Assembly (NCBI GenBank): GCA_013001465.1
Contig: JABDMM010000123.1
Span: 8,845-72,844 of the forward strand
Reading direction: 5' to 3'
DNA: 64,000 bases
Source of the DNA: Chitinophagales bacterium
GTDB lineage: Bacteria > Bacteroidota > Bacteroidia > Chitinophagales > JABDMM01
Position 1 is the stretch's first letter. Every line of letters starts with the position of its first letter. The position numbers and the translations under genes were made by a program. The notes under the pieces are model-generated. The model was not told where the DNA came from, searched no databases, and saw only the letters and a list, made by a program, of their open reading frames with translations. Positions 7,873-53,534 of the stretch are shown here, one piece after another.

Positions 7873-7891
7873 AACGTTAAAATTTTAGATA

Positions 7892-8596: not shown

Positions 8597-8697
8597 TTTT
8601 TCTATTTATTTAAAACGGAGCGCAAAATTACGGCATACTTTCATCATATAAAAGCATAGAGCAATCTGTTTTAAGAAAGGACAGAGTAGCATAATCA

Positions 8698-9348: not shown

Positions 9349-9364
9349 GATCGGTCGATCAGAT

Positions 9365-9715: not shown

Positions 9716-9769
9716 AAGCAGTTACATTTTTATGAATTTAATGATTCTTATATATACTATTGAAATTAC

Positions 9770-11080: not shown

Positions 11081-11241
11081 GTTTTACGGATTGAATTCAG
11101 AGGAAAAGATAAGGAATTCTATAGTTCTTCTATTATAGCCATATTGATCTTGAATCTTAATTTGGATTTTACTGATTCTTACTCTACTACAAAGGATGTT
11201 TCCCTTAGATAACCGCTAGATCAAATAACACATCAATATGT

Positions 11242-12519
11242 CTATTTTTTATTTATTAGTTTGAATATTATAGTAGCAAGGAGCCCAACGGCTGCGAATG
11301 AAGCTATCAAAGCAAACACGTGTTGATGTCCGACTTCACCCGGGGAACGATCCAAAAGAAATCCCATAAGTGGTCCCATAAATATATCCGGAGTATAACC
11401 GATAAAAGAGACTATACCAATTGCACTTCCTGTATATAACAGCGGTACTTTTGCTTCTTCGAACAATACAAAATAGACTCCTCTCAACGCATGAATTCCG
11501 ATGCTTGTTGTTACAACCACTGCAACGATCGACACATATACACCACTTCCAAGCAAGCCAAATGTGATAAAAGTGCTTCCAAAAATAATGATCATGAAGC
11601 CCAATAAGAGTACTGTGGATGATTGGATGCGATCTCCGAGAAAACCTGCTGATACCGCTGCAAAAGGCCTTACCCATAATGAGATCGAGGCTATTTTAGC
11701 CGCTTCTACATCATCATAATTAAATGTGTCATACACGTATAGTGAAAAATCATCTGTTCCTTTGTATGCAACATAAGCACACACAACTATTACAGCTTGG
11801 AGCCAGATAGAAGGTCTGCTGAGACCATCTTTTAAGCCTTCGAGAGATATTCTCTTTATCGAACCCACATCATGCGATGCTGGTGTATCCGGAACCAGAA
11901 AGAATACGATAATTGCAATTAATATGACCAGAAAACTGATCATTAGGATAACAGCTCTGAGTGCATATGTTTTCTCTGTTATATTAGCAAAAGCGGGATC
12001 TGGAAGAAGCGATGAAAACACAAAAACGGCAATTGATGCCATCAATGCAGCCATGAGTCCCCTGCCACCATCTAACAAACCGTAAGCTTTCCCTTGACTG
12101 CTGGCACCACCCCAAACTCTTGTTGCTTTGATCAAGGCAGCCCAAAAAAGCAGAATGGTAGTCAAGCCCCAGAAAGCATATAAAACTACAAGGAGATTGA
12201 GATCCGGAACAGAAGCAAAGACAAATCCTCCAATTGCAGTAGACACAAGAGCAAATGACATCAGTTTTCTTGCGGAAAAAATATCTGCTAACGGACCTCC
12301 AAGAAAATATGAACCCATAGCTACCGTTCCATATGCCGAGAATGCCAAGCCAAGCTGAAGATTGTTGATCTCAAAAACATCAAGGATGGTTGGTCTAAAA
12401 ACCCTGACAAGTACAAATGGTAAAAGAAATATACCTTCCCCGGCTGCAACCATCGAGATCATTATGAAAACCTTATGCATCTTTCCGTTTGTGCCTTGTA
12501 AAGGTTGCTTGTCTATCAA
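11242..12519 (-). CDS. MFS transporter
   Basis: 425 aa with about 12 predicted TM segments in a 6+6 layout and a central loop. The true start may be the internal Met (MHKVFIM...). Confidence 0.75.
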   Translation of the reverse strand: MIDKQPLQGTNGKMHKVFIMISMVAAGEGIFLLPFVLVRVFRPTILDVFEINNLQLGLAFSAYGTVAMGSYFLGGPLADIFSARKLMSFALVSTAIGGFVFASVPDLNLLVVLYAFWGLTTILLFWAALIKATRVWGGASSQGKAYGLLDGGRGLMAALMASIAVFVFSSLLPDPAFANITEKTYALRAVILMISFLVILIAIIVFFLVPDTPASHDVGSIKRISLEGLKDGLSRPSIWLQAVIVVCAYVAYKGTDDFSLYVYDTFNYDDVEAAKIASISLWVRPFAAVSAGFLGDRIQSSTVLLLGFMIIIFGSTFITFGLLGSGVYVSIVAVVVTTSIGIHALRGVYFVLFEEAKVPLLYTGSAIGIVSFIGYTPDIFMGPLMGFLLDRSPGEVGHQHVFALIASFAAVGLLATIIFKLINKK

Positions 12520-36842: not shown

Positions 36843-39101
36843 ATGAGATTGTTGTACATATTATGTTTATTACTGTCTGTTAATCTAAGGAGCTTTGCTC
36901 AGCAACCCTTCTTCCCGTCTGATAGTTTAATATTTGATGATCAGGTTGTTTCGGAAGTACAGATCTGGATCGACCAACAGTCATTGGATGCTATCTTGAG
37001 TGATGTTCATAGCGATGTTGAATACCCTGCAACTTTTGTTTTTATTCATCCATCTTTTTCAGATACCATAGTGGATGTTGGATTCAGATTGCGTGGTAAT
37101 ACTAGCAGAGTCTCTGCTAAGAAAAGCTGGAAGATTAGCATGAATACCTTCTTACCCGGAAGGAAATTTATGGGTCTTGAGAAACTTAATATCAATGGTG
37201 AACATAATGATCCCACAGTAATGAGATCGAAATTGTGCTGGGACTTATGCAGAGAGATGCAAATCCCTGCACCGAGATCAAATCATGTTGCTCTTTATAT
37301 CAATGGCCATTATCGGGGAATTCATATTAATGTTGAACATATCGATGAAGAATTTGTAAGAAGCAGGTTTGGGAATCGATCTGGAAATCTATATAAATGC
37401 TACTGGGGTAGCGACCTAACTTACATCGATGATAATCCAGCTAGCTATATGGACAAAAGCTATGAGTTGAAGACGAATACCGATGAAAATGACTTCTCTG
37501 ATCTTGCCGAGTTTATAAAAGTGTTGAACAAATCTTCGCTTTCCACCAGAGCCTGTGAACTCCGGGAGGTTTTTAATGTCGACGACTATCTTCGTTCTAT
37601 GGCGATGGATATTCTCACTGGTAACTGGGATGGTCCACTTATCAATAAAAATAATTTTTACCTCTATCATAATTCAAGTACAGATCAGTTCGAGTACATT
37701 CCATATGATCTGGACAATACCTTTGGTATCGATTGGCTCGGTCAGGATTGGGGTACACGAAGTGTCTATGATTGGACCAGCGATCCAAACAGACCTCTCT
37801 TCACCAAACTAATGGATATACAAGAATTCAGAGATCTGTTGAGTTACTATATGGACGAGATAATATCTACCTACTTCAACTCATCTACTCTGGATCCAAA
37901 AATCGACAATACTGCACAAATGATTAGACCATTTGTTGCAGCAGATTCTTTTTATTCTAAAGACTATGGTTATACGATCACGGATTTTGATCTAAGCCTA
38001 AATGTTGGTTTACCAGGTGGTTCATTTCATGATGATGATTATGGTTTGAAAAGCTATGTCTCAACTCGTTCCTCAACAGCTTCTTCAGAGTTAGTTACCA
38101 ATCCACTTAAGACCGTCGTACACTATCTGGATCATGACTTTGAGTTTGATGAGCAAAGACTTTACATCACAGCGAGTATTTGGGATGATGTATCGGTATC
38201 CAATCCCAAACTTGAATACTTTATAGATAGTGGATCTCCATCTACCACCAATCTTTTGGATGATGGACTTCATAAAGATGGGAAATCCGGTGATGGTAGA
38301 TATGGAAATTATATTTCTCTTCCTCTGGATTTTGAAAGTATATCCTTTCGGATAACTGCAGAGAATTCCGGTGGACCGCTCACTGTTTATCCTTGCGATT
38401 ACAAGACGATCTCCTACAGCGAAAGCCCGGTAAAATTGTTTGTCAACGAGATCATGGCGCTTAATGAAACCACCATTGCGGACGAAGTGGGTGAATTCGA
38501 TGATTGGATCGAAATATATAATGGAGGCACAAACCCAGTTTTTCTTGGCGATAAATTTTTAACCGATAACAAAAGCAATCGTGACAAATGGCAAATGCCT
38601 GCTATTACAATTGACCCTGGAGAATTTTTAGTTTTCTGGGCAGACGAAAACGGTGCACAAGGTGAAATGCATGCGAACTTTAAACTTAGCAGTCAGGGTG
38701 AATATATCGGGATTTTTGACAATAGCGAAAGCGATTTTGCAGTCATCGATGAGTATTTCTATGGTCCTCAAACTACAGACGTAAGCTATGGCTATACTGT
38801 CGATGGATTTGGAAGTCCGGAAAAACTACCACAACCAACTCCGGGTAGATCAAACAACCCTCCGGAATCAGGAAATATCGTCTTATACCCTAATCCTACA
38901 AGTGGTTCGATCAATATCGAAGGGGCTTCTATCGATAGAATGAAATTGATATCTACCGATGGGAAACTGATCTTTGATGAAGCACTTTCTTCTGTTTCAG
39001 AGTTACAACTGCCGGGGGCTGTTCCTAATGGAGTATATATCCTTGAAATAAAAACCAGTAATGATCAGACTTTGCAAAAGTCAATTGTCATAATGAGATG
39101 A
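36843..39101 (+). CDS. CotH-family kinase-like protein with lamin-tail domain and type-A T9SS C-terminal domain
   Basis: 752 aa with a signal peptide. CotH-like core (LRGNTSR..., KLNINGEHNDPTVMRSKL, NFYLYHN...PYDLDNTFG). LTD-like VNEIMALNE...DDWIEIYNGG...FLTDN. C-terminal IVLYPNPTSGSINIE...GVYILEIKT. Confidence 0.8.
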   Translation: MRLLYILCLLLSVNLRSFAQQPFFPSDSLIFDDQVVSEVQIWIDQQSLDAILSDVHSDVEYPATFVFIHPSFSDTIVDVGFRLRGNTSRVSAKKSWKISMNTFLPGRKFMGLEKLNINGEHNDPTVMRSKLCWDLCREMQIPAPRSNHVALYINGHYRGIHINVEHIDEEFVRSRFGNRSGNLYKCYWGSDLTYIDDNPASYMDKSYELKTNTDENDFSDLAEFIKVLNKSSLSTRACELREVFNVDDYLRSMAMDILTGNWDGPLINKNNFYLYHNSSTDQFEYIPYDLDNTFGIDWLGQDWGTRSVYDWTSDPNRPLFTKLMDIQEFRDLLSYYMDEIISTYFNSSTLDPKIDNTAQMIRPFVAADSFYSKDYGYTITDFDLSLNVGLPGGSFHDDDYGLKSYVSTRSSTASSELVTNPLKTVVHYLDHDFEFDEQRLYITASIWDDVSVSNPKLEYFIDSGSPSTTNLLDDGLHKDGKSGDGRYGNYISLPLDFESISFRITAENSGGPLTVYPCDYKTISYSESPVKLFVNEIMALNETTIADEVGEFDDWIEIYNGGTNPVFLGDKFLTDNKSNRDKWQMPAITIDPGEFLVFWADENGAQGEMHANFKLSSQGEYIGIFDNSESDFAVIDEYFYGPQTTDVSYGYTVDGFGSPEKLPQPTPGRSNNPPESGNIVLYPNPTSGSINIEGASIDRMKLISTDGKLIFDEALSSVSELQLPGAVPNGVYILEIKTSNDQTLQKSIVIMR

Positions 39102-42100
39102 TCATCTCAATAAGGTAAGCGTACTGCTGATCACCTGATACTCACTTTCGGCTTTATTATAAAACTGCACAGAAACAGCGTAAACTGCCATTTTCTGAGG
39201 TCTGCCAAAAAAACTTCCATCCCAGCCTTCATCTGGATCATTGGTGTAAAACAGCTCATCTCCTAAGCGATTATAAATCCTGATCTCGATGTCATCAACG
39301 TTAAATGGATAGACGTAGAACTTATCATTAACTCCATCCCCGTTTGGCGAGAAGCCTGTAGGTATATTTACAAACGATGCATTCTCAATGCAGACCTCTT
39401 CAGAATGAACTCCACTGCAACCAAATTCATTTTGAATATCTAGTGATATGTTATATATCCCTGCATCTTCATAATTATATATAGGATTATCAAGTGGGGT
39501 GTAAAAAGCAAAGTTTCCATCACCAAACCCCCAGAAACCAACTGTGCCACCTTCACTTTTATCGACTATTTGGATGGTAGCATCATACAGTATGATGCAT
39601 TCTCTGTCTGGTGTCACTGAAAAATCTGCGATGACCCTGTTGTAAGCAGGCACCTTTACTTGAGCGGTCTCTTCGCAACCGTAGGCTGAAGTCACTGTCA
39701 CAGTATAGAATCTACCTGCCGCAGCCTTGATCAATGCCGTTTCCGAGTTTTTCTCGTCATTCCATCTATAAGTATATGTTCCTATCGGACTTACAAGCGC
39801 CTCAGCGAAGCCATTTTCATCTCCGAAACAAAGTTTGTCGCTGGTATCAAAACTAATAATGAATGGAGCTTCAACATCAACGTCGATAAATGCTGTGTCC
39901 GGTTCAGTGCAGATATCGCTCACTATAACATAATACTGATCACTTACAGGCGGCTGAATCAATATAGAACTACCATTTCCAAGACCATTGCTCCATTCAA
40001 AATTATAATAGCTCGGGAATCCTCCATTGGCATTTACTAAAAGCCGCACAAAATCTCCTTCACACAATGTAGTGTCTGCAAAAGGAACAATAATACTAAG
40101 TGAGTCATTCACCGAAACTAAAGAGGTGGTCGTTACACCACAATAAGTGTAGGAAATAGAATGTATACCCGGACCTGAATTAAATGGATTGAAAAAATTA
40201 CCGCTGAGACCGGTAAAACTACCACCTGCAGGAGCGCCGCTTACTGCGACCAGCGTATCCTGAAAACAATAACTGTTATCCAATCCATTTATAGATAGAG
40301 TAGGAGCAGGGGTGACAGTGACTGTCATCACGTCCCAGCATCCGTTTGTAGTTGCATAACCAATAGTGTGCTGACCTGCTCCGGCAATTCCCGGATCAAA
40401 TTCACCTGTTGAATTATTGATAATACCGGTACCACTCCAGAGACCACCACCTATATCTACTGGCAACAAAGCGGGATCTTCACTTACACAAAATGTGGTG
40501 TCTGTGAGGTTTGGATCTGGGTTGACAGGTATGACCATGCTGTCAATACAAGAATTGACTGAATAATATATCTTGTGATTGCCAGCACCGGCAACAGAAG
40601 GATCAAACTCTCCATTGGTGTTTGGGTTTATTATCCCGGGTCCCGACCAATTCCCTCCCCATGGGTTTCGCATGGTATTATTCCAATTCAGGATAACAAT
40701 AGAATCGGATTCACACATTGCATTGTATACTGAAGTAGCGATATCAGTGATCCGCACAAAAACGGTAATGGTATCAGTGCAGCCTCCGATGCTATAAACC
40801 AGATCAACTGTTGAATTGATATAGCCATTGTAGGATGGATCAAATACTCCATTAACGGGATCTGTAATACCGGGGCCAGACCAGTTACCACCTGGTGGAT
40901 CAAAATTACTCAGTGTTACAGGAGCTTCGCTAGGGCATGCATTGATATTCCAACCGGCAAAGATCTGAACCATATTCATCTCCAGCGTATCTGAGCATCC
41001 ATTAAGTGAGTATACCAGTTCATTTATTCCGGGCGGTGCAGAGGGTGGATCGAAAAGTCCGCTGGATGAATTTAGTATTCCATTCCCACTCCAACTTCCG
41101 CCATACGGTGAAAAAGGCAACTCAAAAGCATTTTGATTCTCACACGAAGTATCTCTCTGCGGAATAATGATGCTATCAACTAAGATCGCCTTTTGCGATG
41201 GAGGGCAACCGCTTACAGTATATTCTACTACATACACTCCCGAAACAGATGGAGTGAATAAACCACCGGGCGAAATGTTTGGTCCACTCCATGTGCCGCC
41301 AGCAGGGTTAAACCCGCTTACCGCAAACGGACCACTTCCGGGGCATGCAGCTTCATCTGGGCCTGCATAGGCTGGATTAACAATTATCGATTCGCTGCTG
41401 CTACATCCATTTACTGAATACATAACATTGTGAATGCCAGGTCCGGAACCGTTCGGGTCAAAGATCCCATTTATTGAATTTACAATACCTGGACCGGACC
41501 AGGTCCCACCAACTGGATTGGCAATGAGCGTTTGAAGGCTATCAGTTTCGCAGAATGGTCCCGCCGGAGCGATAACAGGAAGTGGATTCACATTTATAGT
41601 GATCTGATCCATTGCAGGTGGCGAACCACTTGCATCAGTAACAGTCACAAAATAGGTAGTTGTCGTTGCAGGGCAAACCGTATGATCACCAGGACCCGCC
41701 GGCAATGCTGGTGACCAGGTGTATACATAAGAAACCAGGTCTCCGCCACTGGCATCAGCGAATATGTCGGTGCACTCACCTTCACATATCGTGGTTGAAT
41801 TTGCCAGCAAAACCACTTGAAGGGGACAATCATCAACGGTGAAATTCCCATTGACCATCAGCTCCCATGGATTATCACAAAGATCCAGAAAGGTAGCATT
41901 AATGGTAACTCCATAGACTGCGCTTTGAATAATAGGACCGGAAAACTGAAGTTCGATCACACTAGTGGTATCATTGACACAATTTATCGGTATAATATTT
42001 ACCACAGAAGGAGCAGACGGACCAGACAGGAAAGCGCTTCCAGAAGCCAGAGAATCACAGTTGAGAGGAAAGTCAAATGACATCCTGAGCGTTGTCATAT

Positions 42101-42566
42101 TACAAGTTGGATTGTAAAAGCTATCTATAATTGGATCTGGAGGTTGAGTAACTACAGATGTCCACGATGCATCCCAACCTGAACAGGATACATTCCCATC
42201 AGATTTGAAATGAACTGTGAGGTAACCGCTCTGAGCAACAATTGCAGGAGGTACGTTGGTACCGCTGAATGGAATTCCAACTGAAGGAGATAAGGTATCC
42301 GGTCCATCAAAAAAGCGAAGGATATCAAAATTCAATTCAGTACAAAAACTATTAAAAGTAAGCACAATCGAATCAGCTTGCGGTACACAAATGGTAAAGA
42401 TGAAATTTTCATTATGTCCATAATTACCACCTGGATTACCTGCTTCGCTATCTAGGAAAATAGCATCGCATTCAAATACAATTGCATTGGAAATGGAGTA
42501 GGAGGGCTGTGCTAATAATGGATAAAAAGCTACAAGACTAAAGAATATGAGAATAACGGTCCTCAC
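39102..42566 (-). CDS. giant adhesin-like protein: N-terminal CUB-like domain, 7 GGxWSGxGI repeats, SprB-type and PKD-like modules, type-B (CHU_C / gliding-associated) T9SS C-terminal domain
   Basis: 1154 aa. GTG start overlaps the upstream stop (GTGA). The CUB-like pattern spans residues 33-136. The repeats read GG.WSG.GI....G.FDP...G.G.H.i.Y...C. C-terminal TGFSPNGDGVNDKFYVY...W.G is the type-B signature. Confidence 0.75.
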   Translation of the reverse strand: MRTVILIFFSLVAFYPLLAQPSYSISNAIVFECDAIFLDSEAGNPGGNYGHNENFIFTICVPQADSIVLTFNSFCTELNFDILRFFDGPDTLSPSVGIPFSGTNVPPAIVAQSGYLTVHFKSDGNVSCSGWDASWTSVVTQPPDPIIDSFYNPTCNMTTLRMSFDFPLNCDSLASGSAFLSGPSAPSVVNIIPINCVNDTTSVIELQFSGPIIQSAVYGVTINATFLDLCDNPWELMVNGNFTVDDCPLQVVLLANSTTICEGECTDIFADASGGDLVSYVYTWSPALPAGPGDHTVCPATTTTYFVTVTDASGSPPAMDQITINVNPLPVIAPAGPFCETDSLQTLIANPVGGTWSGPGIVNSINGIFDPNGSGPGIHNVMYSVNGCSSSESIIVNPAYAGPDEAACPGSGPFAVSGFNPAGGTWSGPNISPGGLFTPSVSGVYVVEYTVSGCPPSQKAILVDSIIIPQRDTSCENQNAFELPFSPYGGSWSGNGILNSSSGLFDPPSAPPGINELVYSLNGCSDTLEMNMVQIFAGWNINACPSEAPVTLSNFDPPGGNWSGPGITDPVNGVFDPSYNGYINSTVDLVYSIGGCTDTITVFVRITDIATSVYNAMCESDSIVILNWNNTMRNPWGGNWSGPGIINPNTNGEFDPSVAGAGNHKIYYSVNSCIDSMVIPVNPDPNLTDTTFCVSEDPALLPVDIGGGLWSGTGIINNSTGEFDPGIAGAGQHTIGYATTNGCWDVMTVTVTPAPTLSINGLDNSYCFQDTLVAVSGAPAGGSFTGLSGNFFNPFNSGPGIHSISYTYCGVTTTSLVSVNDSLSIIVPFADTTLCEGDFVRLLVNANGGFPSYYNFEWSNGLGNGSSILIQPPVSDQYYVIVSDICTEPDTAFIDVDVEAPFIISFDTSDKLCFGDENGFAEALVSPIGTYTYRWNDEKNSETALIKAAAGRFYTVTVTSAYGCEETAQVKVPAYNRVIADFSVTPDRECIILYDATIQIVDKSEGGTVGFWGFGDGNFAFYTPLDNPIYNYEDAGIYNISLDIQNEFGCSGVHSEEVCIENASFVNIPTGFSPNGDGVNDKFYVYPFNVDDIEIRIYNRLGDELFYTNDPDEGWDGSFFGRPQKMAVYAVSVQFYNKAESEYQVISSTLTLLR

Positions 42567-43000
42567 TTTCTTACGGTTATAATAGGTGTAACGACTTCAT
42601 TGCTCCAATTGCCTGCTCTGTCTTTCAGGCGAATGGTATATCTTGTAAATTCTTCTCCTCCGCTGCCAATAAGAAAAGTATTGCGTAAACGGATATTTAT
42701 ATCACCTTCAATGGCGATGGATGCATCTTCAGGAGCGAGTTGTGGTATATAGTAAAGGTCCGCTTTTTCGAGTCGATCATCTTTGACCCAAAGTGAATTT
42801 GAATCGGGATCAGAAAAGCCGAGATCTCCATCCCCATCTTCATAGTGGACAGTGATAACAATTGAATCTATGAATTCTACAACTTGCGTTTCACTGATAT
42901 TCTCCAGACTGATCTTTGGTACAGGATCACCGGAACCTGTCTCTCCGCAATTGATCAAAAGGATTCCACAACTTAGATATGTTAAGGCCAGCCTTTTCAT
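42563..43000 (-). CDS. small lipoprotein, unknown function
   Basis: 145 aa. Lipobox LLINC. Acidic YEDGDGDLGFSDPDSN loop. The start overlaps the upstream stop (TAATG). Confidence 0.5.
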   Translation of the reverse strand: MKRLALTYLSCGILLINCGETGSGDPVPKISLENISETQVVEFIDSIVITVHYEDGDGDLGFSDPDSNSLWVKDDRLEKADLYYIPQLAPEDASIAIEGDINIRLRNTFLIGSGGEEFTRYTIRLKDRAGNWSNEVVTPIITVRK

Positions 43001-43950
43001 TACTGAAGTTGAATTGAGAAATATATTTTTAAATGATCCGCACTGAATCTACCCGGGATCATGGTAACATCGTTCTGTAGAGGATCCTGGATTAAGATAC
43101 GTGCAAAAGCAGTTTCACCGAGGTCCCAGATGTTATCTGGATCGTCAACTGTAGCACGAAATTGATAATCAACATTCTGGCCGCTATATCCAATTTCGCT
43201 TGGAGGATTGCTAAGGTAGGTCATGCTATAAACTTGCGCATTTGCAAAATGGTCCCTGGATTTGGAGATCTCAAGACTGATGACAGACAAGTTGGAAATT
43301 GGACTCTCAAGATCTGAAACTCCAAGATAGATCTCTATCGTTGGTTCACCGAAAGGAATTATTATTGAACCGTTTCCAAAGTCTCTGGGATAAATTGGAT
43401 TGGATCCTGGTTTTTTGGCTGCAAATCCTGTCATCTGAGGAGCTCTATCAACAATAGTTGCAGTCTGTCCCATGATATCTTTAGCTCCACCATCGATCCA
43501 ATCAGATATGTTTTTTATGTATTCATCTTTCTTTTCCTCCCAATCGTTACCGGGATCGATCAGCAAAGGCATGATACCTGAATTACCACCCAGGTCTTTC
43601 GTGAGACGGCGATAAAGGATAGAGTTTTGATGATCTCCGGCTTTCACACGATAGTCTATCGGGTCATCGACATCATTTTTGATCAATGGATGATACACGA
43701 GAGTATTGTAAGAACTTTCGATGGTTCTGAAATCGGGTTCGAAACTACCATCGTGACAACCTGAGTTTGCACAAGTTGGTTTAAATATATTCTTGTAAAG
43801 CCCTTCGATTGAAGTCGCTGAAACATCAATTTGGTTTGTGTCTACCGGAATTTGATTGTATACATCAAACGGGTTTGGCGGATCGGTTTCACATGAAAGC
43901 ATCATCAGAGCGATCAGGATGAACAATGTATATGGTAATGCCTTCATCAT
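43000..43950 (-). CDS. lipoprotein, unknown function
   Basis: 316 aa. Lipobox MMLSC. The start overlaps the upstream stop (ATGA). Confidence 0.5.
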   Translation of the reverse strand: MMKALPYTLFILIALMMLSCETDPPNPFDVYNQIPVDTNQIDVSATSIEGLYKNIFKPTCANSGCHDGSFEPDFRTIESSYNTLVYHPLIKNDVDDPIDYRVKAGDHQNSILYRRLTKDLGGNSGIMPLLIDPGNDWEEKKDEYIKNISDWIDGGAKDIMGQTATIVDRAPQMTGFAAKKPGSNPIYPRDFGNGSIIIPFGEPTIEIYLGVSDLESPISNLSVISLEISKSRDHFANAQVYSMTYLSNPPSEIGYSGQNVDYQFRATVDDPDNIWDLGETAFARILIQDPLQNDVTMIPGRFSADHLKIYFSIQLQ

Positions 43951-45302
43951 ATCTGATCAAAAAATGATTGTGCAGCTCCGTCGATCAACCCCTCGCTGAT
44001 CACTTCGTTTTTTATTCCTAAGGCATCAGCGACAGTTAAAAGAGCATCTGATGCATCACCAATTGGATTGCTTTCCGAACCCTTCACGAGATTCGCATCG
44101 ATACCCGGACCTGCCATCATGCTGAAGATCCTTCTTGAGTTTGGATCAGAATCGTGATCAAATGCTTTGAAGTTGTTACCATCGATGATCGGATTTGGAT
44201 CTAAGTTTCTGCCATGTTCAGGAATAATAAGAACCATCGTATTTCCTGACATTGCAGGGATCTGGGTCTGAATATAATTCCAGATATGTCCTACACCATG
44301 ATCACAACGGTGCAAGTTTCTTAAATATGACGTGAAGCTGGAATGGCAGCTGTCGATAGAGTTCATATTGATGACTGTAAGCGTTGGCTCAAACCACTTC
44401 ATGACCTCGCAAGCATAACCCATGGTCGAAAGGTCTCCATTATCGTTAACCGGTGGAAATGCGATAGTACCCGAATCTTTCTTGATAAATGTTGTTTTTA
44501 TAAATTCCTTAATGTCGTGCTTCTCATCATCGGTATTGCTAACGCCATTCAGAGTTCCTGCATTGAATTGAAAAACATTATCCAGGAAAAATTGCATTTC
44601 ATAAATAGGTCCGAGCTCTTCTTCCGGGTGATAAGCTTTTGCATTTTTAATATTATTCTCACCGGGGTTCCCAAATGTTATATTTGGTGCAAGGAAATTT
44701 CCACCGAAGTCGGCACCAAAAAGTTCATGTGTACTATAATTTAAAAGCGGAACAGAGTTTCCAATACCATTTCCGACGAACCAAACTTTTGACGCAGGAA
44801 TTGATCTGTACTTTCGCAAATATTCAAATATTGTGGGATTTACCGGCCTTTCTTTTAAACCCTGAACGAAATTGTAGTTCCCGGTTAACAAGGTGTTCAA
44901 TCCAGAAAAGTGTCCGGTGCCACCTTGGGAATACGCTACTTCAGCAAAAGTGGTTCCTTGTGATTCTAATGATTGTGATAAAATTTTTGGTATAGGTTGA
45001 CCACCTTGAACGCCACCATTTATATCTGTGCCGTAAACGATCTTCTGAGACGGTGCTCCACCGGAGAATAAATTATAAAGGATATTCCCGTCGATATTGG
45101 TTTCACCTTGACTATCCGCGAGATATCTCTGAAGTACGGACTCTTGCTGTCTTACTCCGCCTGCAAAAAGCACAAGGACCACATGATCTACCATAGGTGC
45201 TGCAGAACGAGCAAATGCAGTTTTAGATGACATGAAATAAGGCATGCCAATGCCCGCAGATGCAGCGATCGCCGATGTTTTTATAAATTTTCTCCTTTTC
45301 AT
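43947..45302 (-). CDS. Tat-exported alkaline-phosphatase-superfamily protein (DUF1501-like)
   Basis: 451 aa. Twin-arginine signal MKRRKFIKTSAIAASAGIG. VVLVLFAGGVRQQES near the N-terminus and IIPEHGRN...FDHDSD near the C-terminus resemble the metal-site blocks of DUF1501/sulfatase-fold proteins. Confidence 0.5.
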   Translation of the reverse strand: MKRRKFIKTSAIAASAGIGMPYFMSSKTAFARSAAPMVDHVVLVLFAGGVRQQESVLQRYLADSQGETNIDGNILYNLFSGGAPSQKIVYGTDINGGVQGGQPIPKILSQSLESQGTTFAEVAYSQGGTGHFSGLNTLLTGNYNFVQGLKERPVNPTIFEYLRKYRSIPASKVWFVGNGIGNSVPLLNYSTHELFGADFGGNFLAPNITFGNPGENNIKNAKAYHPEEELGPIYEMQFFLDNVFQFNAGTLNGVSNTDDEKHDIKEFIKTTFIKKDSGTIAFPPVNDNGDLSTMGYACEVMKWFEPTLTVINMNSIDSCHSSFTSYLRNLHRCDHGVGHIWNYIQTQIPAMSGNTMVLIIPEHGRNLDPNPIIDGNNFKAFDHDSDPNSRRIFSMMAGPGIDANLVKGSESNPIGDASDALLTVADALGIKNEVISEGLIDGAAQSFFDQI

Positions 45303-45314
45303 TACTCGATCTTT

Positions 45315-45797
45315 TTAATAGAACATATATTCATCTGAGATCGCAAATGCAAAATAGACTTGTTCTACAGTTACGTTTGGATCGTTATTTATATAATCCC
45401 TGAAAAACTCTTTTTCAATTTCTGTAGGAGGTCTAACATAAAATCTCTTGTAAGTATCGATGACAAACTGGTCAATATCATCTCTCATTTCCGGATCTGA
45501 CGGTAAAATTACCGCAGGGTCATTCATAAAGCTGCTAATGATCAGCTCCCTTGCAAGTCGCTTATCCCCCAATGACTCAATGACACGCTCTAACTCCACA
45601 AGTCTGTTGGATGACAACGCTTTCTGAAATAGATTGGCATACAAAATGGAGACGTATTGCTTATCCGTTTTTTGTTTGCTCTTAACCGCATTCACAGGAA
45701 GAATATCTGTATCGACTATACCATAAGTATATGCGTCCTCTTTGCAAGATGTTGCAAAGAGTGAGAGCGTTATGATCATTATTAAAAATCGTCTCAT
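45315..45797 (-). CDS. lipoprotein, unknown function (helical)
   Basis: 160 aa. Lipobox LFATSC. Helical repeats ending ...FAISDEYMFY. Confidence 0.5.
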   Translation of the reverse strand: MRRFLIMIITLSLFATSCKEDAYTYGIVDTDILPVNAVKSKQKTDKQYVSILYANLFQKALSSNRLVELERVIESLGDKRLARELIISSFMNDPAVILPSDPEMRDDIDQFVIDTYKRFYVRPPTEIEKEFFRDYINNDPNVTVEQVYFAFAISDEYMFY

Positions 45798-45806
45798 GCT
45801 TTGGTG

Positions 45807-46688
45807 TTAAAAGTTTGAATAATCTTCATCGATCATGATGTACTGTTGAAGTTGTTGAAATGTATATCCTTCCTGAAGCAACAATTTCAATAAAGTTAAA
45901 GACTCATCTGCTGTGGCTTCACGACCCATCAATGTTTCAAACTGCCAACGGATCAATCCTTCGTAAAACTCTTCCGAGCTGGTTACTATATCCATGTAAT
46001 CTCCACGATTATGACCGTTCCTTCCAAGAAGTATAACAGAGGAGTTATCCTCTATCATTGTCCATGAATTGTCAAATTCATCTGTTGTAGGAAAACGATA
46101 ATAGAGATTGTCAAAAGTGGCATTGATAAAATTAAATGTATTCATATTGATCTCATCGTAAACCGAATTGTCGATCAATCTTCTAAAGACTTCACTGATG
46201 CTAATTTTATAGCTACGGAATTGATACTGAAGTCTAAGAACCCTTCTTAATTCTTTTATCTCATCACGCCAACGAGCAACCCCCGCTGAGTCTCCGGAAA
46301 GAGAATCCGATTCGAGTTGGAATGAAAATATACCGATACTTGTGTTGAGATCACCATCAGAGATGCCTTCGACCATTCTAACTTTAGAAATATCATAAAG
46401 GCGACGGTTGTATGCAATATGATATGAGGAATCACCTTCAACCCAATTAGAATCAAACTGAAGTTTTTGAACCAATGCAAGTTTTACTGAATCCGCTAGC
46501 CCGCCTTCCTTAATTAAACTGCTTTCTTGAACCATCTCATCGTCAATTGGCTCTCTCCCCAGTAGATCTATAAAACATTTGTTGACATAATTCTCTATGA
46601 TGATCGACGAAACAGCATTACTTCCGGGTGGATTGTTTCCGGGTATTAAAACTTCATCTTGTTTGCATGAAGTTAGAGTAACGATCAT
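45807..46688 (-). CDS. lipoprotein, unknown function (helical; LLGRE-type repeats); true start probably upstream at a non-ATG codon
   Basis: 293 aa from the first ATG, but the frame stays open upstream to 46739 and encodes (I)LLKNNILFVAFL-MIVTLTSC, a complete lipoprotein signal. Repeats FIDLLGREPIDDE and ETLMGREATADE. Confidence 0.5.
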   Translation of the reverse strand: MIVTLTSCKQDEVLIPGNNPPGSNAVSSIIIENYVNKCFIDLLGREPIDDEMVQESSLIKEGGLADSVKLALVQKLQFDSNWVEGDSSYHIAYNRRLYDISKVRMVEGISDGDLNTSIGIFSFQLESDSLSGDSAGVARWRDEIKELRRVLRLQYQFRSYKISISEVFRRLIDNSVYDEINMNTFNFINATFDNLYYRFPTTDEFDNSWTMIEDNSSVILLGRNGHNRGDYMDIVTSSEEFYEGLIRWQFETLMGREATADESLTLLKLLLQEGYTFQQLQQYIMIDEDYSNF

Positions 46689-46784
46689 TAAAAAGGCAAC
46701 GAATAGAATATTGTTCTTTAACAGTATGAGATACGGATTTTAGTATATTATAAATATAAGAAAGTTGGTTCGTAAATCCTTAAA

Positions 46785-46812
46785 CAAAAAAAGGAGGGAT
46801 ACCCCTCCTTTT
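46785..46812 (-). terminator. rho-independent terminator downstream of the 580-aa gene
   Basis: Perfect 7-bp GC-rich stem AGGAGGG (46792-46798) / CCCTCCT (46803-46809) with loop ATAC. On the minus strand it is followed by a run of 8 T. Confidence 0.6.
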
Positions 46813-46839: not shown

Positions 46840-48582
46840 TTAATCTTCCACCCTGCCAACATAAAACTCAAATGTTTTCTCACTCTTGTTGCCGAGTTTA
46901 TCCGTGGCAACCACCCGAACTTCATACTTCTTACGTTGCCTGAATTTGCTTAACTCCGAAATATCTAATGTTTGAGGAGAAGAATAATCGGTAAGAGCAG
47001 ATCCATCTATCGAGTATTGAAGGCGGTCTGTTCCTACCTTCTTGTCCGTTGCTCCAACGTACATTCTAACATAATTTGGATAGACTTTTAAATTGCCCTT
47101 ACTGCCTATAGGATCTATCGAGAAGTTTACAAAAATGTTTGGTGGTGTATTGTCGACGGTAATTCTGCTTGTCTTTGCGCTTTCCTGATTATTTACATTA
47201 TCTGTTGCATAGAACTTTACAGTATGCGGGCCTTCACCGGGTATCGTAAAAATATTGTACTCGGAAAAGTTGCTGTTGTCTATGGCATATACTAAAGACT
47301 GAACTCCGGCATGAACATCACGTGATCGTAACGTGACCGAAGTTGAGCTGGTGATAAACAATGTATCTCTGTGAAAGAATTGTGGGTTGCCGTAAAATAT
47401 TCCCGTTTCAGGTGCCAGATTATCTAAATAGACATTCAGATATTTATTAGGAGATAAATTCTCCACGTTATCTGTGGCGTCGTACTTAATGCTGTGCTTG
47501 CCTAAAGCATTGGGGAAATAGAAATTATTAGCATAGTCAAAACGCTCGCCTCCATCGATTCTGTAATAGATCTTGTGAACTCCGGCTTTGTTATCTGTAG
47601 CCGATAATCCTACCTGAGTACGTGAAGAAACATAGAGGTAGTTGCTGGTTTGATGTTGGTCTCCGATAACTTCAGAAATAACCGAAGGTGGAATTTTGTC
47701 CAGATAAAATTTAAATGACTGTTGCCCCGCCTCATTTCTGACGTTGTCGACAGAATAGTAATAAAGTGTATGATCCCCATCGACGAGGCTGCTAACACCT
47801 ATCGTAGGAGTATAACCTCTTGAGCTGTTATCATCAAAAGAATAATGCACTGATCTTACACCAGATAGATTATCTGTAGTAGTGATCCTAAAGCGAGTGC
47901 TTGGCGCAATGATGTTCCCATTATGCACGATGCCTTCAATGGCGTGGCTCGATTGTGGTGAGTTAAGATCAACGGTATAATTAACTGGATTGGTTCTCTC
48001 GGCGTTTCCAACCTTATCAGCAGAAAAGAAATACAAATTATTAACGCCCTCTTTAGAAGACTGAAATGGAGAAGAGTACTTTTGATATGCTCCATTTAAT
48101 GCATACTGTGTTTCGCTAACTCCAGATACCGCATCTGAGGCAGAAAGAGTGATATTAAGTCCGGGGCCATAGTAGGTCGTGCCGCCGCTGGTATATCTGC
48201 TGGCACCATCAAATCTAACTGAAGTTAAAGGAGACTTACCATCAGCATAAATTTCCATTTCCACCTCTCTTGGCGGGTAGACCGAATTGCCCGTAGCAGG
48301 GTCAACTGCCCACTTACTTCGTATCAAATTCTGACCCTCAGTATCGAGGTACATAGGATTTGCGTCCGATGGATGAGATGCACTTTTTAATGGATAATTC
48401 TTTCCGTCCGGGGTAACAGAAAACTTTAAATAAACCGGTAACGATTTCTGTATATAGTATCTTCCGTTTTCCTCAATAACCTTGTTTTCATATGTTGGCT
48501 TTGCAGGTTCTTGTGAAATACTGTCAAAAGAAAGTACGCTTATAATAAGTACAAGAACCACGGATTTTGAGTTAACTCTCAT
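46840..48582 (-). CDS. secreted protein with five tandem ~90-aa Ig-like repeats
   Basis: 580 aa with a signal peptide. Each repeat contains D..SGV..(i)Y..dg and ends in (A/S)xD(N/K)xxN.(E/S). Examples: SADKVGNAE, SVDNVRNEA, ATDNVENLS, ATDNVNNQE, ATDKLGNKS. Confidence 0.6.
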   Translation of the reverse strand: MRVNSKSVVLVLIISVLSFDSISQEPAKPTYENKVIEENGRYYIQKSLPVYLKFSVTPDGKNYPLKSASHPSDANPMYLDTEGQNLIRSKWAVDPATGNSVYPPREVEMEIYADGKSPLTSVRFDGASRYTSGGTTYYGPGLNITLSASDAVSGVSETQYALNGAYQKYSSPFQSSKEGVNNLYFFSADKVGNAERTNPVNYTVDLNSPQSSHAIEGIVHNGNIIAPSTRFRITTTDNLSGVRSVHYSFDDNSSRGYTPTIGVSSLVDGDHTLYYYSVDNVRNEAGQQSFKFYLDKIPPSVISEVIGDQHQTSNYLYVSSRTQVGLSATDNKAGVHKIYYRIDGGERFDYANNFYFPNALGKHSIKYDATDNVENLSPNKYLNVYLDNLAPETGIFYGNPQFFHRDTLFITSSTSVTLRSRDVHAGVQSLVYAIDNSNFSEYNIFTIPGEGPHTVKFYATDNVNNQESAKTSRITVDNTPPNIFVNFSIDPIGSKGNLKVYPNYVRMYVGATDKKVGTDRLQYSIDGSALTDYSSPQTLDISELSKFRQRKKYEVRVVATDKLGNKSEKTFEFYVGRVED

Positions 48583-50204: not shown

Positions 50205-53200
50205 TTAATTCGATGCTACCTTCTTATCCGCAGGTAAAATACGAATAAGTTGTATGAAATCATTGTTGTTTCCGGCAATCAGATAGCGCTCTCCATCAAT
50301 TTCTATTTTTTCCATCGACTTTAAGTCCTTATCAAGATAAAGCCCGGATTCGTAGACCTCTAGTGCCTCCCATTCTCTGTTCCCTTTGTTTAAAACTATT
50401 CTGCCTGTACCTGCATCCGCTCTGCCAGTCTCAATCTCGGCCTGGTAATGGTTTCCTGCAGTGATAATATCGGTTTTGCCATCATTGTCGACATCCAAAA
50501 TTACAATACCATTGATTGGTGATGTCTGACATTCAATTGGTAGTGTCTTTGCTTCAAAACCTTCCGCACTTCCGTAATAAATTGTAGATGCAAATTGATT
50601 CACAGTAAGGTGCAATGCGTCGTTTAATGATTCCCCATATACATCTCCTATCTCCGAGATAGCATACTCATGATAACTTGGAAACTTCTTTTTGATCTCA
50701 GGAAGTTGTTCTGATGAACATGACCTTCCTCTGACCGGGTAAACTTCATCTCCATAATAAGCTCCTAAGACAATGTCAAAAGTTCCGTTTTGATCGATGT
50801 CTTTCGCGTATACCTGAAAAGGTTTTTCATCGCTGGCTTTGTATTTATAGTTATAGCCCAGGTTCCCAGTGAGAAGGTCGGTATAACCATCGTTATCTAT
50901 ATCGGCAACTTTGATGCAGTTCCACCAACCTTTTTGTGGTGTCTTGAAAAACTCATCTGTCTTTTCAACAAGCTTACCTTCGGATTGAACAAACACAGAA
51001 ATCGGCATCCATTCTCCAACAACGATCAGATCTAACTTTTCATCTCGATTTACATCTGTCCAGACCGCATCTTGCACCATTCCAATATTTTCCAGATCAG
51101 CACATATAGTGGCTGTCTCATCGGAAAAGATACCTCTGCCGTTATTGATGAGTAAACTGCTTCTTCCAGGCATTGGATAGCTTTTGGGGTGAAGTCGGCC
51201 TCCCAGGAAAAGATCCATGTCGCCATCACCATCGAAATCAGCTGCTTTTACACATGAACTGCTGTATCTTAAATTTGGAAGAGAAGTTGAAGAACGTATA
51301 AAGTTTCCTTTTCCATCGTTCAAGTATAATCGAGGCTGATATTGCGGACTGCCAATTGGGTATTCATAGCCGGCACTACTTACAAACAGATCCTGATCGC
51401 CGTCATTATCAGCATCGAAAAATGTCGCTTTCCCATCCTCAAAGCCACTGTCTTTCTGAAACAACGTCGTATTGCTTTTTATAAATTTACCGTTAACCTG
51501 TTTGTATAAAACCGAAGGCATTCCTTCAGCCGATCCGATGAAGAGATCACTTTCTCCATTATTATCAATGTCTGCGACCTGAATATTTGGTCCTTGTTCA
51601 GACATTTTGTGCGGAAGCAATATCTGATCTTTGTAGTCATCATACTTATTCTCGACATGCTTGTGTTCTAATCCAAAAGATGATGCATTGACCTCTTCAA
51701 CAATATGTTCGTTTTCTGGTTTTACAAATGACTCGGAGGCATCTTCGTAATCTACGGTGATCAGTTGATCTGCCTTAACGTTTTCCATACTCAACATCTT
51801 TCCGTCAAGCCAAACAACTTTTACTTTGTCTACAGTTTGTTGCTCGCCAAGTCCGAAATGAATAAATGGCTCACAACTCGCCTGATAACCTCTTGTTGTG
51901 ATGAATTCGCGGTACTGTATTTCGTCATTCGACTCTAGAATCACCTTTGCTCCTGCATTTACAACTCCTTTATTGGTCTTGAATCCAATTCTCAGGTAAT
52001 GATTCTCAGCTGATGTTTTGTTTTCATATATCGTTGATGGTTCTCCTAAATTATTTACTACAAGGTCGAGGTCCCCATCGTTATCCAGATCACCATAGGC
52101 AGCTCCGGTCGAAATGGTTTTTTTATCCATTCCGCTAATAAGTGAAAGATTAGTAAAAGTGAGATCTCCGTTATTTTTAAAAATGTAATTGTGAACCTTC
52201 GGTTGCGCGCAGCTTCTGGCATATTCTGATGCGATTTGATTTTTCTTTACCATGTCAGGCCCTAATGTTAGCATTACCGAATCAAACTTCTTGTAAGAGT
52301 CCTGATTATAAATATCTCGATAGTAACCATTCGATACGAAAACATCCTGCCAGCTGTCGTTATCCAAATCCATGAACAGGGGTGACCAACTCCAATCTGT
52401 TTTATGGATTTCTGCAAGTTGCGCTATGTCGCTAAATGTTGAATTTCCATTATTGAGATGTAGAAAATTACGCATCTGGTAATAATTGACGTCGTACTCT
52501 TCGATCAAAAGTTGAAACCTGTCGACGGACTGCATACTCATAGATATCTTTTCCCTATAATGATCTTCACTTAGCATTTCAGCTACCATTAGATCTGGAT
52601 AGATATCATGATTTACATCACCGGCATCTATTCCCATCGAACTTCTGCTAACTTGCTTTACTGCGTGATCTGTTATATCGGTGAATGTCCCATCACCATT
52701 ATTGACAAGAGCAATATCCGGTTCATCATGATCTACTGCAAAGTAAATATCAGGATAGCCGTCCAGGTTGAAGTCAGTGGTTACCAGACCTAAAGTAAAA
52801 CTGTATGTGAGCAAACCGGCTTCCTTAGTTACATCTTTAAATTTACCACCATCATTCTTAAAAAGTCTGTTACTGAATTGTAATATCGGATTTTGCCAGT
52901 AATTGTATACCATTTGAAATGGTAACAATCGATATTGAGGGTGATTGGCTACAACAAGATCTAGATCGCCGTCGAGATCGTAGTCAAAAAATGCAGCAGT
53001 AATACTATAGTTTCCGTCATCAATGCCATATTCTGCAGCTTTTTCTGTGAAAGTCCCGTTTTTATTATTGATATACAGAAGATTACTTCGGTCCTCCATT
53101 TTGTCATGGTATGATCTGCAAATATAAATATCTAGCCAACCATCAGAATTGATGTCTACCATTACCGGTGTGGTCGACCATCCATTCACTAATACACCTG

Positions 53201-53534
53201 CACTCTTACTCACATCTTCAAATTTCCAATTTCCTTTATTCATGAATAAGCGTGAAGAGCGCATGTTTCCTGTGACATAAATATCCTGCAAGCCGTCATT
53301 GTTAACATCTCCGATAGCTACCCCTCCGCCATTGTAAGCATTGATATAATTGAAGGGGTTTTTTAGAATACTTTCATCCAGAATATTGTCAAATTTAAAA
53401 CCACACTTTTCAGGATCATGAGCTACTAGTTTTGACTTGAATTTATCATTCTGAAATGATGGAGATTCTAAGTCTTTCTGGCAAGAACACAAGCATATCA
53501 CTGTTAAAATGATTATAGTCTCTTTGAGTCTCAT
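50205..53534 (-). CDS. CRTAC1-family VCBS/FG-GAP repeat lipoprotein with ASPIC/UnbV domains
   Basis: 1109 aa. Lipobox LCSC. Many D.(N/D).DG..D(I/L)(Y/F/V)v repeats. UnbV/ASPIC-like block GAKVILESNDEIQYREFITTRGYQASCEPFIHFGLG. Confidence 0.8.
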   Translation of the reverse strand: MRLKETIIILTVICLCSCQKDLESPSFQNDKFKSKLVAHDPEKCGFKFDNILDESILKNPFNYINAYNGGGVAIGDVNNDGLQDIYVTGNMRSSRLFMNKGNWKFEDVSKSAGVLVNGWSTTPVMVDINSDGWLDIYICRSYHDKMEDRSNLLYINNKNGTFTEKAAEYGIDDGNYSITAAFFDYDLDGDLDLVVANHPQYRLLPFQMVYNYWQNPILQFSNRLFKNDGGKFKDVTKEAGLLTYSFTLGLVTTDFNLDGYPDIYFAVDHDEPDIALVNNGDGTFTDITDHAVKQVSRSSMGIDAGDVNHDIYPDLMVAEMLSEDHYREKISMSMQSVDRFQLLIEEYDVNYYQMRNFLHLNNGNSTFSDIAQLAEIHKTDWSWSPLFMDLDNDSWQDVFVSNGYYRDIYNQDSYKKFDSVMLTLGPDMVKKNQIASEYARSCAQPKVHNYIFKNNGDLTFTNLSLISGMDKKTISTGAAYGDLDNDGDLDLVVNNLGEPSTIYENKTSAENHYLRIGFKTNKGVVNAGAKVILESNDEIQYREFITTRGYQASCEPFIHFGLGEQQTVDKVKVVWLDGKMLSMENVKADQLITVDYEDASESFVKPENEHIVEEVNASSFGLEHKHVENKYDDYKDQILLPHKMSEQGPNIQVADIDNNGESDLFIGSAEGMPSVLYKQVNGKFIKSNTTLFQKDSGFEDGKATFFDADNDGDQDLFVSSAGYEYPIGSPQYQPRLYLNDGKGNFIRSSTSLPNLRYSSSCVKAADFDGDGDMDLFLGGRLHPKSYPMPGRSSLLINNGRGIFSDETATICADLENIGMVQDAVWTDVNRDEKLDLIVVGEWMPISVFVQSEGKLVEKTDEFFKTPQKGWWNCIKVADIDNDGYTDLLTGNLGYNYKYKASDEKPFQVYAKDIDQNGTFDIVLGAYYGDEVYPVRGRSCSSEQLPEIKKKFPSYHEYAISEIGDVYGESLNDALHLTVNQFASTIYYGSAEGFEAKTLPIECQTSPINGIVILDVDNDGKTDIITAGNHYQAEIETGRADAGTGRIVLNKGNREWEALEVYESGLYLDKDLKSMEKIEIDGERYLIAGNNNDFIQLIRILPADKKVASN

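Follow-up and report, generated by a model that had tools for sequence, protein, structure and literature searches.

A stretch of 64,000 nucleotides from the metagenome-assembled genome (MAG) of a Chitinophagales bacterium (GenBank assembly GCA_013001465.1, contig JABDMM010000123.1, positions 8,845 to 72,844), referred to here as the window, carries a compact cluster of six minus-strand genes that we have named g1 to g6 in the order of their transcription. The arrangement of these six genes is conserved well beyond chance and constitutes a genuine conserved operon. Its products are four lipoproteins (g1, g2, g4 and g5), a protein with the fold of the alkaline phosphatase (AlkP) superfamily that bears a signal for twin-arginine translocation (Tat; g3), and a large surface protein that is a type IX secretion system (T9SS) cargo (g6). 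We see about an even chance that the operon is a Bacteroidota-specific, split form of the envelope modules in which a DUF1800- or PSCyt-type protein is paired with a DUF1501 protein, with a T9SS surface protein added to it; g6 would then be a later addition and not the operon's reason to exist. Much less confidence attaches to any specific chemistry than to this architectural and evolutionary statement. The literature searched holds no paper that describes the six-gene cluster, in keeping with the view taken in a first reading of the letters and open reading frames (ORFs) of the window, hereafter the sequence-only reading, that this is not a described system. The features of the operon, in window coordinates, are as follows.

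46789 to 46812, minus strand: intrinsic terminator at the end of the OmpL47-like gene that lies upstream; 10-bp stem (5 pairs are GC), loop of 4 nt, T tail
45807 to 46727, minus strand: g1, a lipoprotein of ~306 aa with three DUF4214/phycobilisome-linker-like helical units (listed ATG at 46688)
45315 to 45797, minus strand: g2, a lipoprotein of 160 aa with two DUF4214-like units and a C-terminal SDEYMFY
43947 to 45302, minus strand: g3, a Tat-signal protein of 451 aa with an AlkP-superfamily fold, DUF1501-like
45291 to 45296, minus strand: codons of the twin arginines R3 and R4 in the g3 signal peptide MKRRKFIK
43000 to 43950, minus strand: g4, a lipoprotein of 316 aa with a helical N-domain (residues ~48-153) and an Ig-like beta-sandwich (172-315)
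43753 to 43773, minus strand: C60-A-N-S-G-C65-H66 of g4, a CX4CH motif and candidate heme-c attachment site
42563 to 43000, minus strand: g5, a lipoprotein of 145 aa that contains a conserved loop, YEDGDGDLG, and the motif RLxDRAGNWSN
39102 to 42566, minus strand: g6, a T9SS cargo of 1154 aa with a Sec signal
42165 to 42425, minus strand: CUB domain of g6, residues 48-134 (PF00431; E 3.5e-8; 34.2 bits, cut-off 21.4)
39111 to 39368, minus strand: type-B T9SS C-terminal sorting domain (CTD) of g6, residues 1067-1152

Layout and conservation of the six-gene unit

The g3 of the window is 100% identical to a protein with locus tag HKN92_10845 from a Chitinophagales MAG. More than 1,280 clusters of homologues of g3 were found, the 120 best of which share 56-62% identity with it, and in a genome scan with one genome per species a g3 relative is encoded by ~450 of 185,579 representative genomes. 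The loci of the best 80 of these ~450 genomes were searched by tblastn with all six proteins. The order g1-g2-g3-g4-g5-g6 on one strand is intact in 62 of the 80 loci and is interrupted by contig ends, in a way that is consistent with the six-gene unit, in 13 more, which leaves five true exceptions (L007, L016, L020, L023 and L025); in L020, g3 stands alone amid unrelated genes. All 80 genomes belong to uncultured Bacteroidota and all are MAGs or single-cell genomes, as are the sources of the named protein matches. They comprise 27 Saprospiraceae or Lewinellaceae, 14 of Chitinophagales type, 18 of Flavobacteriales type, 2 Sphingobacteriales and 19 that are unclassified Bacteroidota or unlabelled, and they are mostly aquatic, many having come from lakes, the sea and wastewater. 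Clustering of the ORFs within 5 kb on each side led to the rejection of a seventh conserved gene, as every flanking family was confined to 12 or fewer of 63 loci. What is conserved, then, is the set of six, and the neighbours seen in the window (an OmpL47-like gene and a CotH gene) are not conserved across loci.

Direct reading of the junctions in the window places 9 nt between the TAA of g1 and the ATG of g2 and 12 nt between the TAA of g2 and the ATG of g3, while the remaining three pairs overlap, by ATGA (g3/g4), TAATG (g4/g5) and GTGA (g5/g6). The 5' boundary of the operon is marked by the terminator at 46789-46812. No comparable terminator lies inside the operon, where the other minus-strand sites of this sort have 5-6 pairs only, and the total of terminator-like sites equals the number expected from shuffles. 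The Rfam scan of the 38-49 kb interval found no RNA element, and no second copy of the cluster was found within the window. The sequence-only reading had described one self-contained unit behind a strong terminator, and had named synteny across the Bacteroidota as a way to check it. The gene order, coordinates, gaps and overlaps that it gave agree with the ORF listing, in which all six ORFs are on the minus strand, and with the junctions as read; the 10-bp stem and T tail account for the terminator, and the synteny of the unit across Bacteroidota loci, with 62 of 80 intact, speaks for a single unit.

One correction concerns the start of g1, for which the placement of the ORF stands and the listed ATG at 46688 probably does not, as only MIVTLTSC would precede the lipobox cysteine. 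The in-frame codons immediately upstream (46689-46727, minus strand; ATA CTG TTA AAG AAC AAT ATT CTA TTC GTT GCC TTT TTA) complete a full lipoprotein signal, LLKNNILFVAFLMIVTLTSC, and contain no ATG, GTG or TTG back to 46727; the homologues of g1 all begin with an ordinary Met and a full signal. Since the upstream signal is without any of these codons, the start is either non-canonical or obscured by a base error in the MAG, and the true start of g1 is probably near 46727, at an ATA or CTG if such an error is not involved.

The encoded proteins and what they might do together

The Tat signal and the AlkP fold that the sequence-only reading had assigned to g3 are both substantiated. R3, R4 and F6 are invariant in 20 homologues (the twin-arginine motif of the window copy being RRKF), and TAT_signal is matched by 6 of the 20 members and TIGR01409 at an E of 0.07. 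With the AlphaFold2 (AF2) model of g3 as query (predicted template modelling score, pTM, of 0.79), Foldseek found phosphonate monoester hydrolase as well as sulfatases, LtaS-type enzymes and alkaline phosphatase (E ~1e-8; probability 1.0 for the last three), at a template modelling (TM) score of only ~0.4 and 12% identity; among the 20 members, Pfam reports Sulfatase in 8 and Phosphodiest in 4. The invariant residues include H40, R51, Q53, E54, H131, D317, C319, H320, H331, D334, H335, E362, R365, D382 and H383, most of which fall in a series that is invariant or nearly so in the family, namely D317-x-C319-H320, H331, D334-H335, E362-(H)-G-R365 and D382-H383. On this evidence g3 belongs to the AlkP superfamily and has an unusual centre that is probably metal-binding. 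Thr129 was considered as a nucleophile of the nucleotide pyrophosphatase/phosphodiesterase (NPP) type, in view of its T-G-H...TG pattern, and was rejected, being conserved in only 45 of 81 sequences. Just past the hydrophobic core of the Tat signal, residues 21-31 of g3 (45210-45242; consensus PYILPSGRLFA) are likewise invariant or nearly so, a degree of conservation that is unusual for a cleaved signal peptide, and the segment may remain on the protein, or a partner may recognise it. Profile searches of PDB sequences with g3, g4 and g2 returned nothing useful.

The fold of g3 invites the idea of a system for scavenging phosphate or sulfate esters, in which g6, g5 and the Ig-like domains would capture organic polymers at the surface and g3 would release phosphate or sulfate from them. 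The Sulfatase and Phosphodiest matches within the g3 family would fit such a role, as would the mostly aquatic origin of the MAGs and single-cell genomes that carry the operon, and in Verrucomicrobia PSCyt genes adjoin sulfatases and carry carbohydrate-binding modules (CBMs; He 2017, PMC5615132). It is nevertheless improbable, given that g3 has neither the usual nucleophile nor the Asp of beta-1 that serves as a metal ligand, that the conserved unit includes no TonB-dependent transporter, Pho-type or sulfatase-maturase gene, and that a heme-like g4 and linker-like g1 and g2 would be left unexplained.

The two lipoproteins that precede g3 are related to one another (hhalign, 94%) and are built of helical units that share the DUF4214 signature Y/F-x-x-L-L/I-G/A-R-x-P-x-x-x-E, ending in S/T-x-E-Y. 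In g1 the motifs are FIDLLGREP, FDNLYYRFPT and TLMGREAT, with a C-terminal DEDYSNF in the window copy and TDEYANF in the family consensus. DUF4214 is matched at E<=1 by 20 of 24 g2 members and 18 of 28 g1 members, and the window copy of g2 scores 22.9 bits against DUF4214 (PF13946), for which the cut-off is 23.2. The Pfam matches over the 28 g1 members, all of them sub-threshold, are to DUF4214 (18), PBS_linker (8), PSD1/DUF1553 (4, best 0.009), PSCyt2/DUF1549 (3, best 0.0016) and DUF1800 (1, 0.018), and a g1 profile finds weak matches among PDB sequences to the phycobilisome linkers ApcE, ApcH and LR, at E values of 0.007-0.04. Both g1 and g2 miss the Pfam cut-offs for PF08811, PF07583 and PF07587, and no NCBIfam match was obtained for any of g1-g5. 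What adjoins g3, then, is a pair of proteins that are remotely DUF1800/DUF1549/DUF1553-like, with every match below the Pfam cut-off; by analogy with the phycobilisome linkers, they may act as a scaffold or in docking.

The AF2 model of g4 (mean predicted local distance difference test, pLDDT, of 84) consists of a four-helix N-domain and an Ig-like sandwich. In 120 sequences the CX4CH motif and the downstream M127-P128 are invariant, with the four spacer residues varying between clades, and both are retained in all divergent variants examined; the confidence of the model falls exactly at these two sites. The topology (N-terminal helix, motif, Met, C-terminal helix) we take to fit that of a class I cytochrome c, and cytochrome c3 offers known examples of heme sites with CX4CH. 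Because of the invariant C-x4-C-H plus Met-Pro, g4 may bind heme c. PSCyt1 is the sole recurrent domain family found in more than two g4 members; g4 itself falls outside PSCyt1 (PF07635) and the c-type cytochromes as these are ordinarily defined, its motif being CX4CH and not CXXCH and its score remaining under that of the Pfam model. At eight loci, all of them from Saprospiraceae (L001, L014, L019, L035, L043-L045 and L066), g4 is a short protein of ~160 aa that consists of the CX4CH helical domain with no Ig-like sandwich; the part of g4 that cannot be spared is the domain with the heme motif.

If heme binding is granted, the operon could serve extracytoplasmic electron transfer, with g4 shuttling electrons to or from a redox metal in g3 and g6 making contact with an external donor or acceptor. 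Apart from the invariant CX4CH...MP of g4, such a role would suit the invariant set of His, Cys and Asp residues in g3, which together with its export by Tat suggests a cofactor, as well as the multiheme cytochrome gene that lies 3' of a DUF1501 gene in a related locus described below; Kamneva et al. proposed the same for the PSCyt/DUF1501 modules (PMC3542564). We nonetheless rate it as doubtful, since it relies on heme binding by a protein that is only a candidate for it, the fold search returned no redox enzyme among the AlkP-fold matches, and the operon lacks a quinol- or membrane-linked partner.

The fourth lipoprotein, g5, is probably a single beta-sandwich and matches no Pfam family; it is present in five-gene variants from which g6 is absent. 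The lipobox cysteine is kept in nearly all homologues of g1, g2, g4 and g5, so the assignment of all four as lipoproteins in the sequence-only reading can stand. Its further statement, that it recognised none of them, still applies to g5 and has been superseded for g1 and g2, which are DUF4214/PBS-linker/DUF1800-like, and for g4, with its PSCyt-like CX4CH. A signal for surface export that follows the lipobox cysteine, C-X-K-(D/E)2-X, has been defined experimentally in Bacteroidota (PMC5080379). In the g1, g2, g4 and g5 families K dominates position +3 and D/E position +4, while D/E at +5 is dominant in g5, accounts for ~40% in g2 and is in the minority in both g1 and g4; the window copies (CKQDE in g1, CKEDA in g2, CETDP in g4 and CGETG in g5) fit the export signal less well.

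The large protein g6 has a hydrophobic N-terminus that is a Sec signal, MRTVILIFFSLVAFYPLLAQ, followed by a CUB domain, a Big_5/CopC-like Ig domain, about eight Ig-like repeats that contain cysteines and follow the pattern GGxWSGPGI...FDP, an SprB-like repeat, a PKD domain and the type-B CTD. The CTD scores above curated cut-offs for both PF13585 CHU_C (47.2 bits, cut-off 27) and TIGR04131 (40.4 bits, cut-off 35), and the PKD domain, like CUB, also exceeds its cut-off, so that the CUB and type-B-CTD calls of the sequence-only reading are upheld and g6, with its sorting domain above cut-off and its Sec signal, classifies as a T9SS type-B cargo. A gene for PorP_SprF (PF11751) lies directly 3' of g6 in two loci, L086 (14666-15685, E 8e-41) and L082 (14284-15222). 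A tblastn search with the L086 protein found no PorP/SprF in the 64-kb window and, besides L086, found one downstream of g6 only in L082; an unrelated match lies in L023.

Some properties of g6 speak for the role that the sequence-only reading had envisaged for the operon, namely that g1-g5 mature, modify or anchor g6, for example with g3 modifying it in the periplasm and the lipoproteins anchoring it. In the main clade g6 is strictly present, is coupled to g5 by GTGA and has a conserved length (median 1171 aa over 61 homologues), and its CUB domain is its best-conserved region (mean column conservation of 0.59-0.65, versus 0.41-0.57 elsewhere). As an adjacent PorP/SprF partner, which type-B cargo often has although it is not obligatory, is missing from the window and from all but two loci, some other anchor could be needed. 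This role must be judged, however, against the more distant relatives of the operon, and on their evidence, given below, it is quite unlikely.

Variants without g6 and the link to DUF1501 and DUF1800

A g3 profile was searched against 1.84 billion cluster representatives, in which the close family is collapsed to few entries, and 962 relatives were recovered. Eight of 60 full-length distant relatives match DUF1501 (best 1.1e-6), 23 match Sulfatase and 21 match Phosphodiest. The loci in which such relatives occur include the following.

L086: all six genes, with a PorP_SprF gene right after g6
L090/L091, L092 and the P0272 contig: g1-g5, no g6
L093: g1, g2, g3 and a 165-aa g4 that consists of the CX4CH domain only, no g6, in a region of surface-polysaccharide biosynthesis
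L088: g1-g3, no g6
L094: g3 alone

The sister clade to which the five-gene loci belong comprises more than 1,300 clusters. A core of g1-g2-g3, with or without g4 and g5, thus persists independently of g6 in related clades. One Chitinophagaceae MAG (prefix EA412) holds both a g3 of the six-gene clade (P0020) and a g3 of the sister clade (P0483), and so the paralogous modules can coexist. The occurrence of divergent relatives without g6, in large clades that hold g1-g5, g1-g4 or g1-g3, weakens the notion of a module dedicated to one adhesin, as does the homology of the core to DUF1800-like/DUF1501 pairs reported from Proteobacteria and PVC (Planctomycetes, Verrucomicrobia and Chlamydiae) phyla, which according to the literature lack the T9SS (PMC3542564, PMC5122149).

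The connection to those pairs was made through a single locus, L089 (GCA_044225365.1), which encodes, in order, a 902-aa protein, a 398-aa DUF1501 protein, a multiheme cytochrome and an EF-hand protein. The 398-aa protein (P0284) scores 28.6 bits against DUF1501, where the cut-off is 27, and is matched by the g3 profile at an E of 2.9e-39. The 902-aa protein has a PKD domain, a DUF1800 match of 25.5 bits (cut-off 26.1), DUF4214 and weaker matches to DUF1549 and DUF1553. On this one chain, g2 aligns with residues 777-902, through the very C-terminus (hhalign 96.5%, E 8e-10), the C-terminal part of g1 aligns with residues 695-779, collinear with the g2 match (31%, E 5e-4), and the N-domain of g4 aligns with residues 28-79 (47%, E 2e-4), including the CX4CH, where IQPIFAANCGTSGCHG is aligned with IFKPTCANSGCHDG. 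These comparisons show that g3 is homologous to DUF1501, transitively through the L089 protein, and that g2 clearly, and g1 and the g4 N-domain weakly, correspond to parts of one DUF1800-like partner. The presence of g4-like, g1-like and g2-like parts in one chain beside a DUF1501 gene provides a Rosetta-stone argument that these proteins work jointly with g3. The four-gene arrangement of L089 is itself uncharacterised; at 7197-11281, beside the pair, its multiheme cytochrome measures 1026 aa and contains an LVIVD repeat, and its EF-hand protein measures 335 aa and has about eight EF-hands.

Several observations tell against deriving the operon from DUF1800/PSCyt and DUF1501 modules. The fusion argument comes from one locus, L089, where of the three hhalign matches those at 31% and 47% are weak. 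PF07394 (DUF1501) is unmatched at E<=10 by g3 or by 19 homologues, which is why the link is a transitive one. PSCyt1 is matched, below threshold, in only 6 of 120 g4 members (best E 0.019) and not at all by the g4 consensus in a search of Pfam, and the Foldseek matches of g4 are to the beta-sandwich only, with no cytochrome match for the N-domain. In g3 the AlkP beta-1 Asp ligand is replaced by Gly-Gly, within an invariant A-G-G-V-R-x-Q-E, and the family alignment shows no conserved Ser/Thr nucleophile; hydrolase chemistry is uncertain on both counts. Finally, the export-like motif of the lipoproteins would, if functional, put them outside the outer membrane and leave g3 in the periplasm. Searches of Pfam with family consensus sequences did not improve the PSCyt1 and DUF1501 links. 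As none of g1-g5 reaches the Pfam thresholds, we do not file them as members of DUF1800, DUF1549, DUF1553, PSCyt1 or DUF1501; homology traced transitively and from profile to profile makes them a divergent branch of that superfamily.

A working model for the split DUF1800/PSCyt-type and DUF1501 module can be sketched as follows. The g3 protein would fold in the cytoplasm, probably with a metal on its invariant cluster of His, Asp, Glu and Cys residues, and would then be exported by Tat; g1 and g2 would dock it at the outer membrane, in the manner of their fused or adjacent counterparts in other phyla; g4 would contribute either a mono-heme c (CX4CH...Met) or a ligand-binding domain of equivalent role, borne on an Ig stalk; and g5 and the T9SS-exported g6 would carry the complex out to the surface, the conserved N-terminal CUB domain of g6 being its likely contact point. 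Our best guess is that such a complex captures and processes a polymer, either extracellular or on the cell surface, perhaps a glycan or an ester-bearing one, an idea that draws on the CBMs and sulfatase neighbours of PSCyt genes, the association of DUF1800/DUF1501 genes with chitin synthases and the polysaccharide-biosynthesis setting of L093. In its most ambitious form, the proposal is that three export routes feed one outer-membrane or surface machine for redox or ester-transfer chemistry on an external polymer, whereby a DUF1501-like enzyme already loaded with its cofactor would arrive by Tat, the split DUF1800/PSCyt-like scaffold and the CX4CH heme protein by the lipoprotein pathway, with a surface-export signal, and the CUB-headed Ig-repeat protein by the T9SS. 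We regard this as speculative and its probability as low; if true, it would open a first way into the function of the DUF1800/DUF1501/PSCyt superfamily.

The surroundings of the operon in the window are rich in large secreted and T9SS-related proteins, as listed here.

15298 to 17913: 871-aa protein with FG-GAP and Por_Secre_tail
17929 to 23013: 1694-aa Peptidase_C25 protein
36843 to 39101, plus strand: CotH kinase-like protein with lamin-tail domain (LTD) and Por_Secre_tail
46840 to 48582: 580-aa protein with five OmpL47-type beta-barrel domains, upstream of g1
50205 to 53534: 1109-aa FG-GAP/ASPIC protein
53641 to 59295: 1884-aa protein with 16 SprB repeats and Por_Secre_tail

The CotH/LTD/Por_Secre_tail gene and g6 are convergent, and their stop codons (TGA at 39099-39101 on the plus strand and TGA at 39104-39102 on the minus strand) abut as the palindrome TGATCA at 39099-39104, with zero intergenic bases and no terminator at this boundary.

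Comparison with known systems

Modules that combine DUF1501 with DUF1800 or with PSCyt/PSD proteins are among the larger unexplained envelope modules of bacteria and have been in print since at least 2012. DUF1501 proteins with Tat signals have been reported in pairs with PSCyt1/PSCyt2/PSD1 proteins (Kamneva 2012, PMC3542564; He 2017, PMC5615132) and with DUF1800 (PMC5122149), with no function assigned in either case, and DUF1800/DUF1501 genes are known to accompany bacterial chitin synthases (PMC5122149). The DUF1501 modules of Planctomycetes and Verrucomicrobia are multi-copy, and the operon described here offers a minimal, single-copy and domain-split version, in which g1-g2-g3 are seen to be kept as a set, as a rule along with the CX4CH domain, and g5, g6 and the Ig stalk of g4 to be dispensable. 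Its separate domains are clear constructs for tests of heme, metal and interaction, and its lipoprotein anchors and T9SS cargo tie a DUF1501-type module to the cell surface.

The operon resembles the DUF1800 (PF08811) and DUF1501 (PF07394) pair in that the gene for a Tat-exported AlkP-fold protein stands beside a gene for an LLGR/phycobilisome-linker-like helical protein. It differs in that the helical partner consists of two small lipoproteins, in that g1, g2 and g3 all fall below the Pfam cut-offs, and in its three extra genes, which encode two lipoproteins (one with CX4CH, the other a beta-sandwich) and a T9SS cargo. With the modules that combine PSCyt1, PSCyt2 (DUF1549) and PSD1 (DUF1553) with DUF1501 it has in common a cytochrome-c-type motif, an Ig-like domain, a helical region and a Tat-exported DUF1501-type enzyme. 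Unlike those of Planctomycetes and Verrucomicrobia, however, it has CX4CH in place of CXXCH and its domains are spread over separate lipoproteins; its Pfam scores are under threshold, it is associated with a T9SS cargo, and all cluster loci that were fetched are from Bacteroidota.

The helical units of g1 and g2 are like those of phycobilisome linkers (REP/PF00427) and of DUF4214 proteins, with matches to DUF4214 and PBS_linker_poly and weak ones to ApcE, ApcH and LR, and DUF1800 has itself been found to resemble a phycobilisome linker in a 2026 paper (PMC12981691). The differences are that g1 and g2 score just below the cut-offs, that their carriers are not described as phototrophs and that no phycobiliproteins are encoded nearby. 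As a bona fide type-B cargo, g6 is comparable to SprB, the T9SS type-B cargo that goes with the PorP/SprF protein SprF (PMC9143113, PMC12618676), whereas in the window and at most loci g6 has no PorP/SprF gene next to it and is encoded together with a Tat enzyme and with four lipoproteins that lack homology to SprC, SprD and SprF. For T9SS biology, the operon is thus an example of a type-B cargo within a non-PorP operon. What is new in comparison with all of these systems is the division of the partner protein into lipoproteins, the CX4CH motif, the surface-export-like motifs, the restriction of every fetched cluster locus to the Bacteroidota and the coupling to a type-B cargo of conserved length without an adjacent PorP/SprF.

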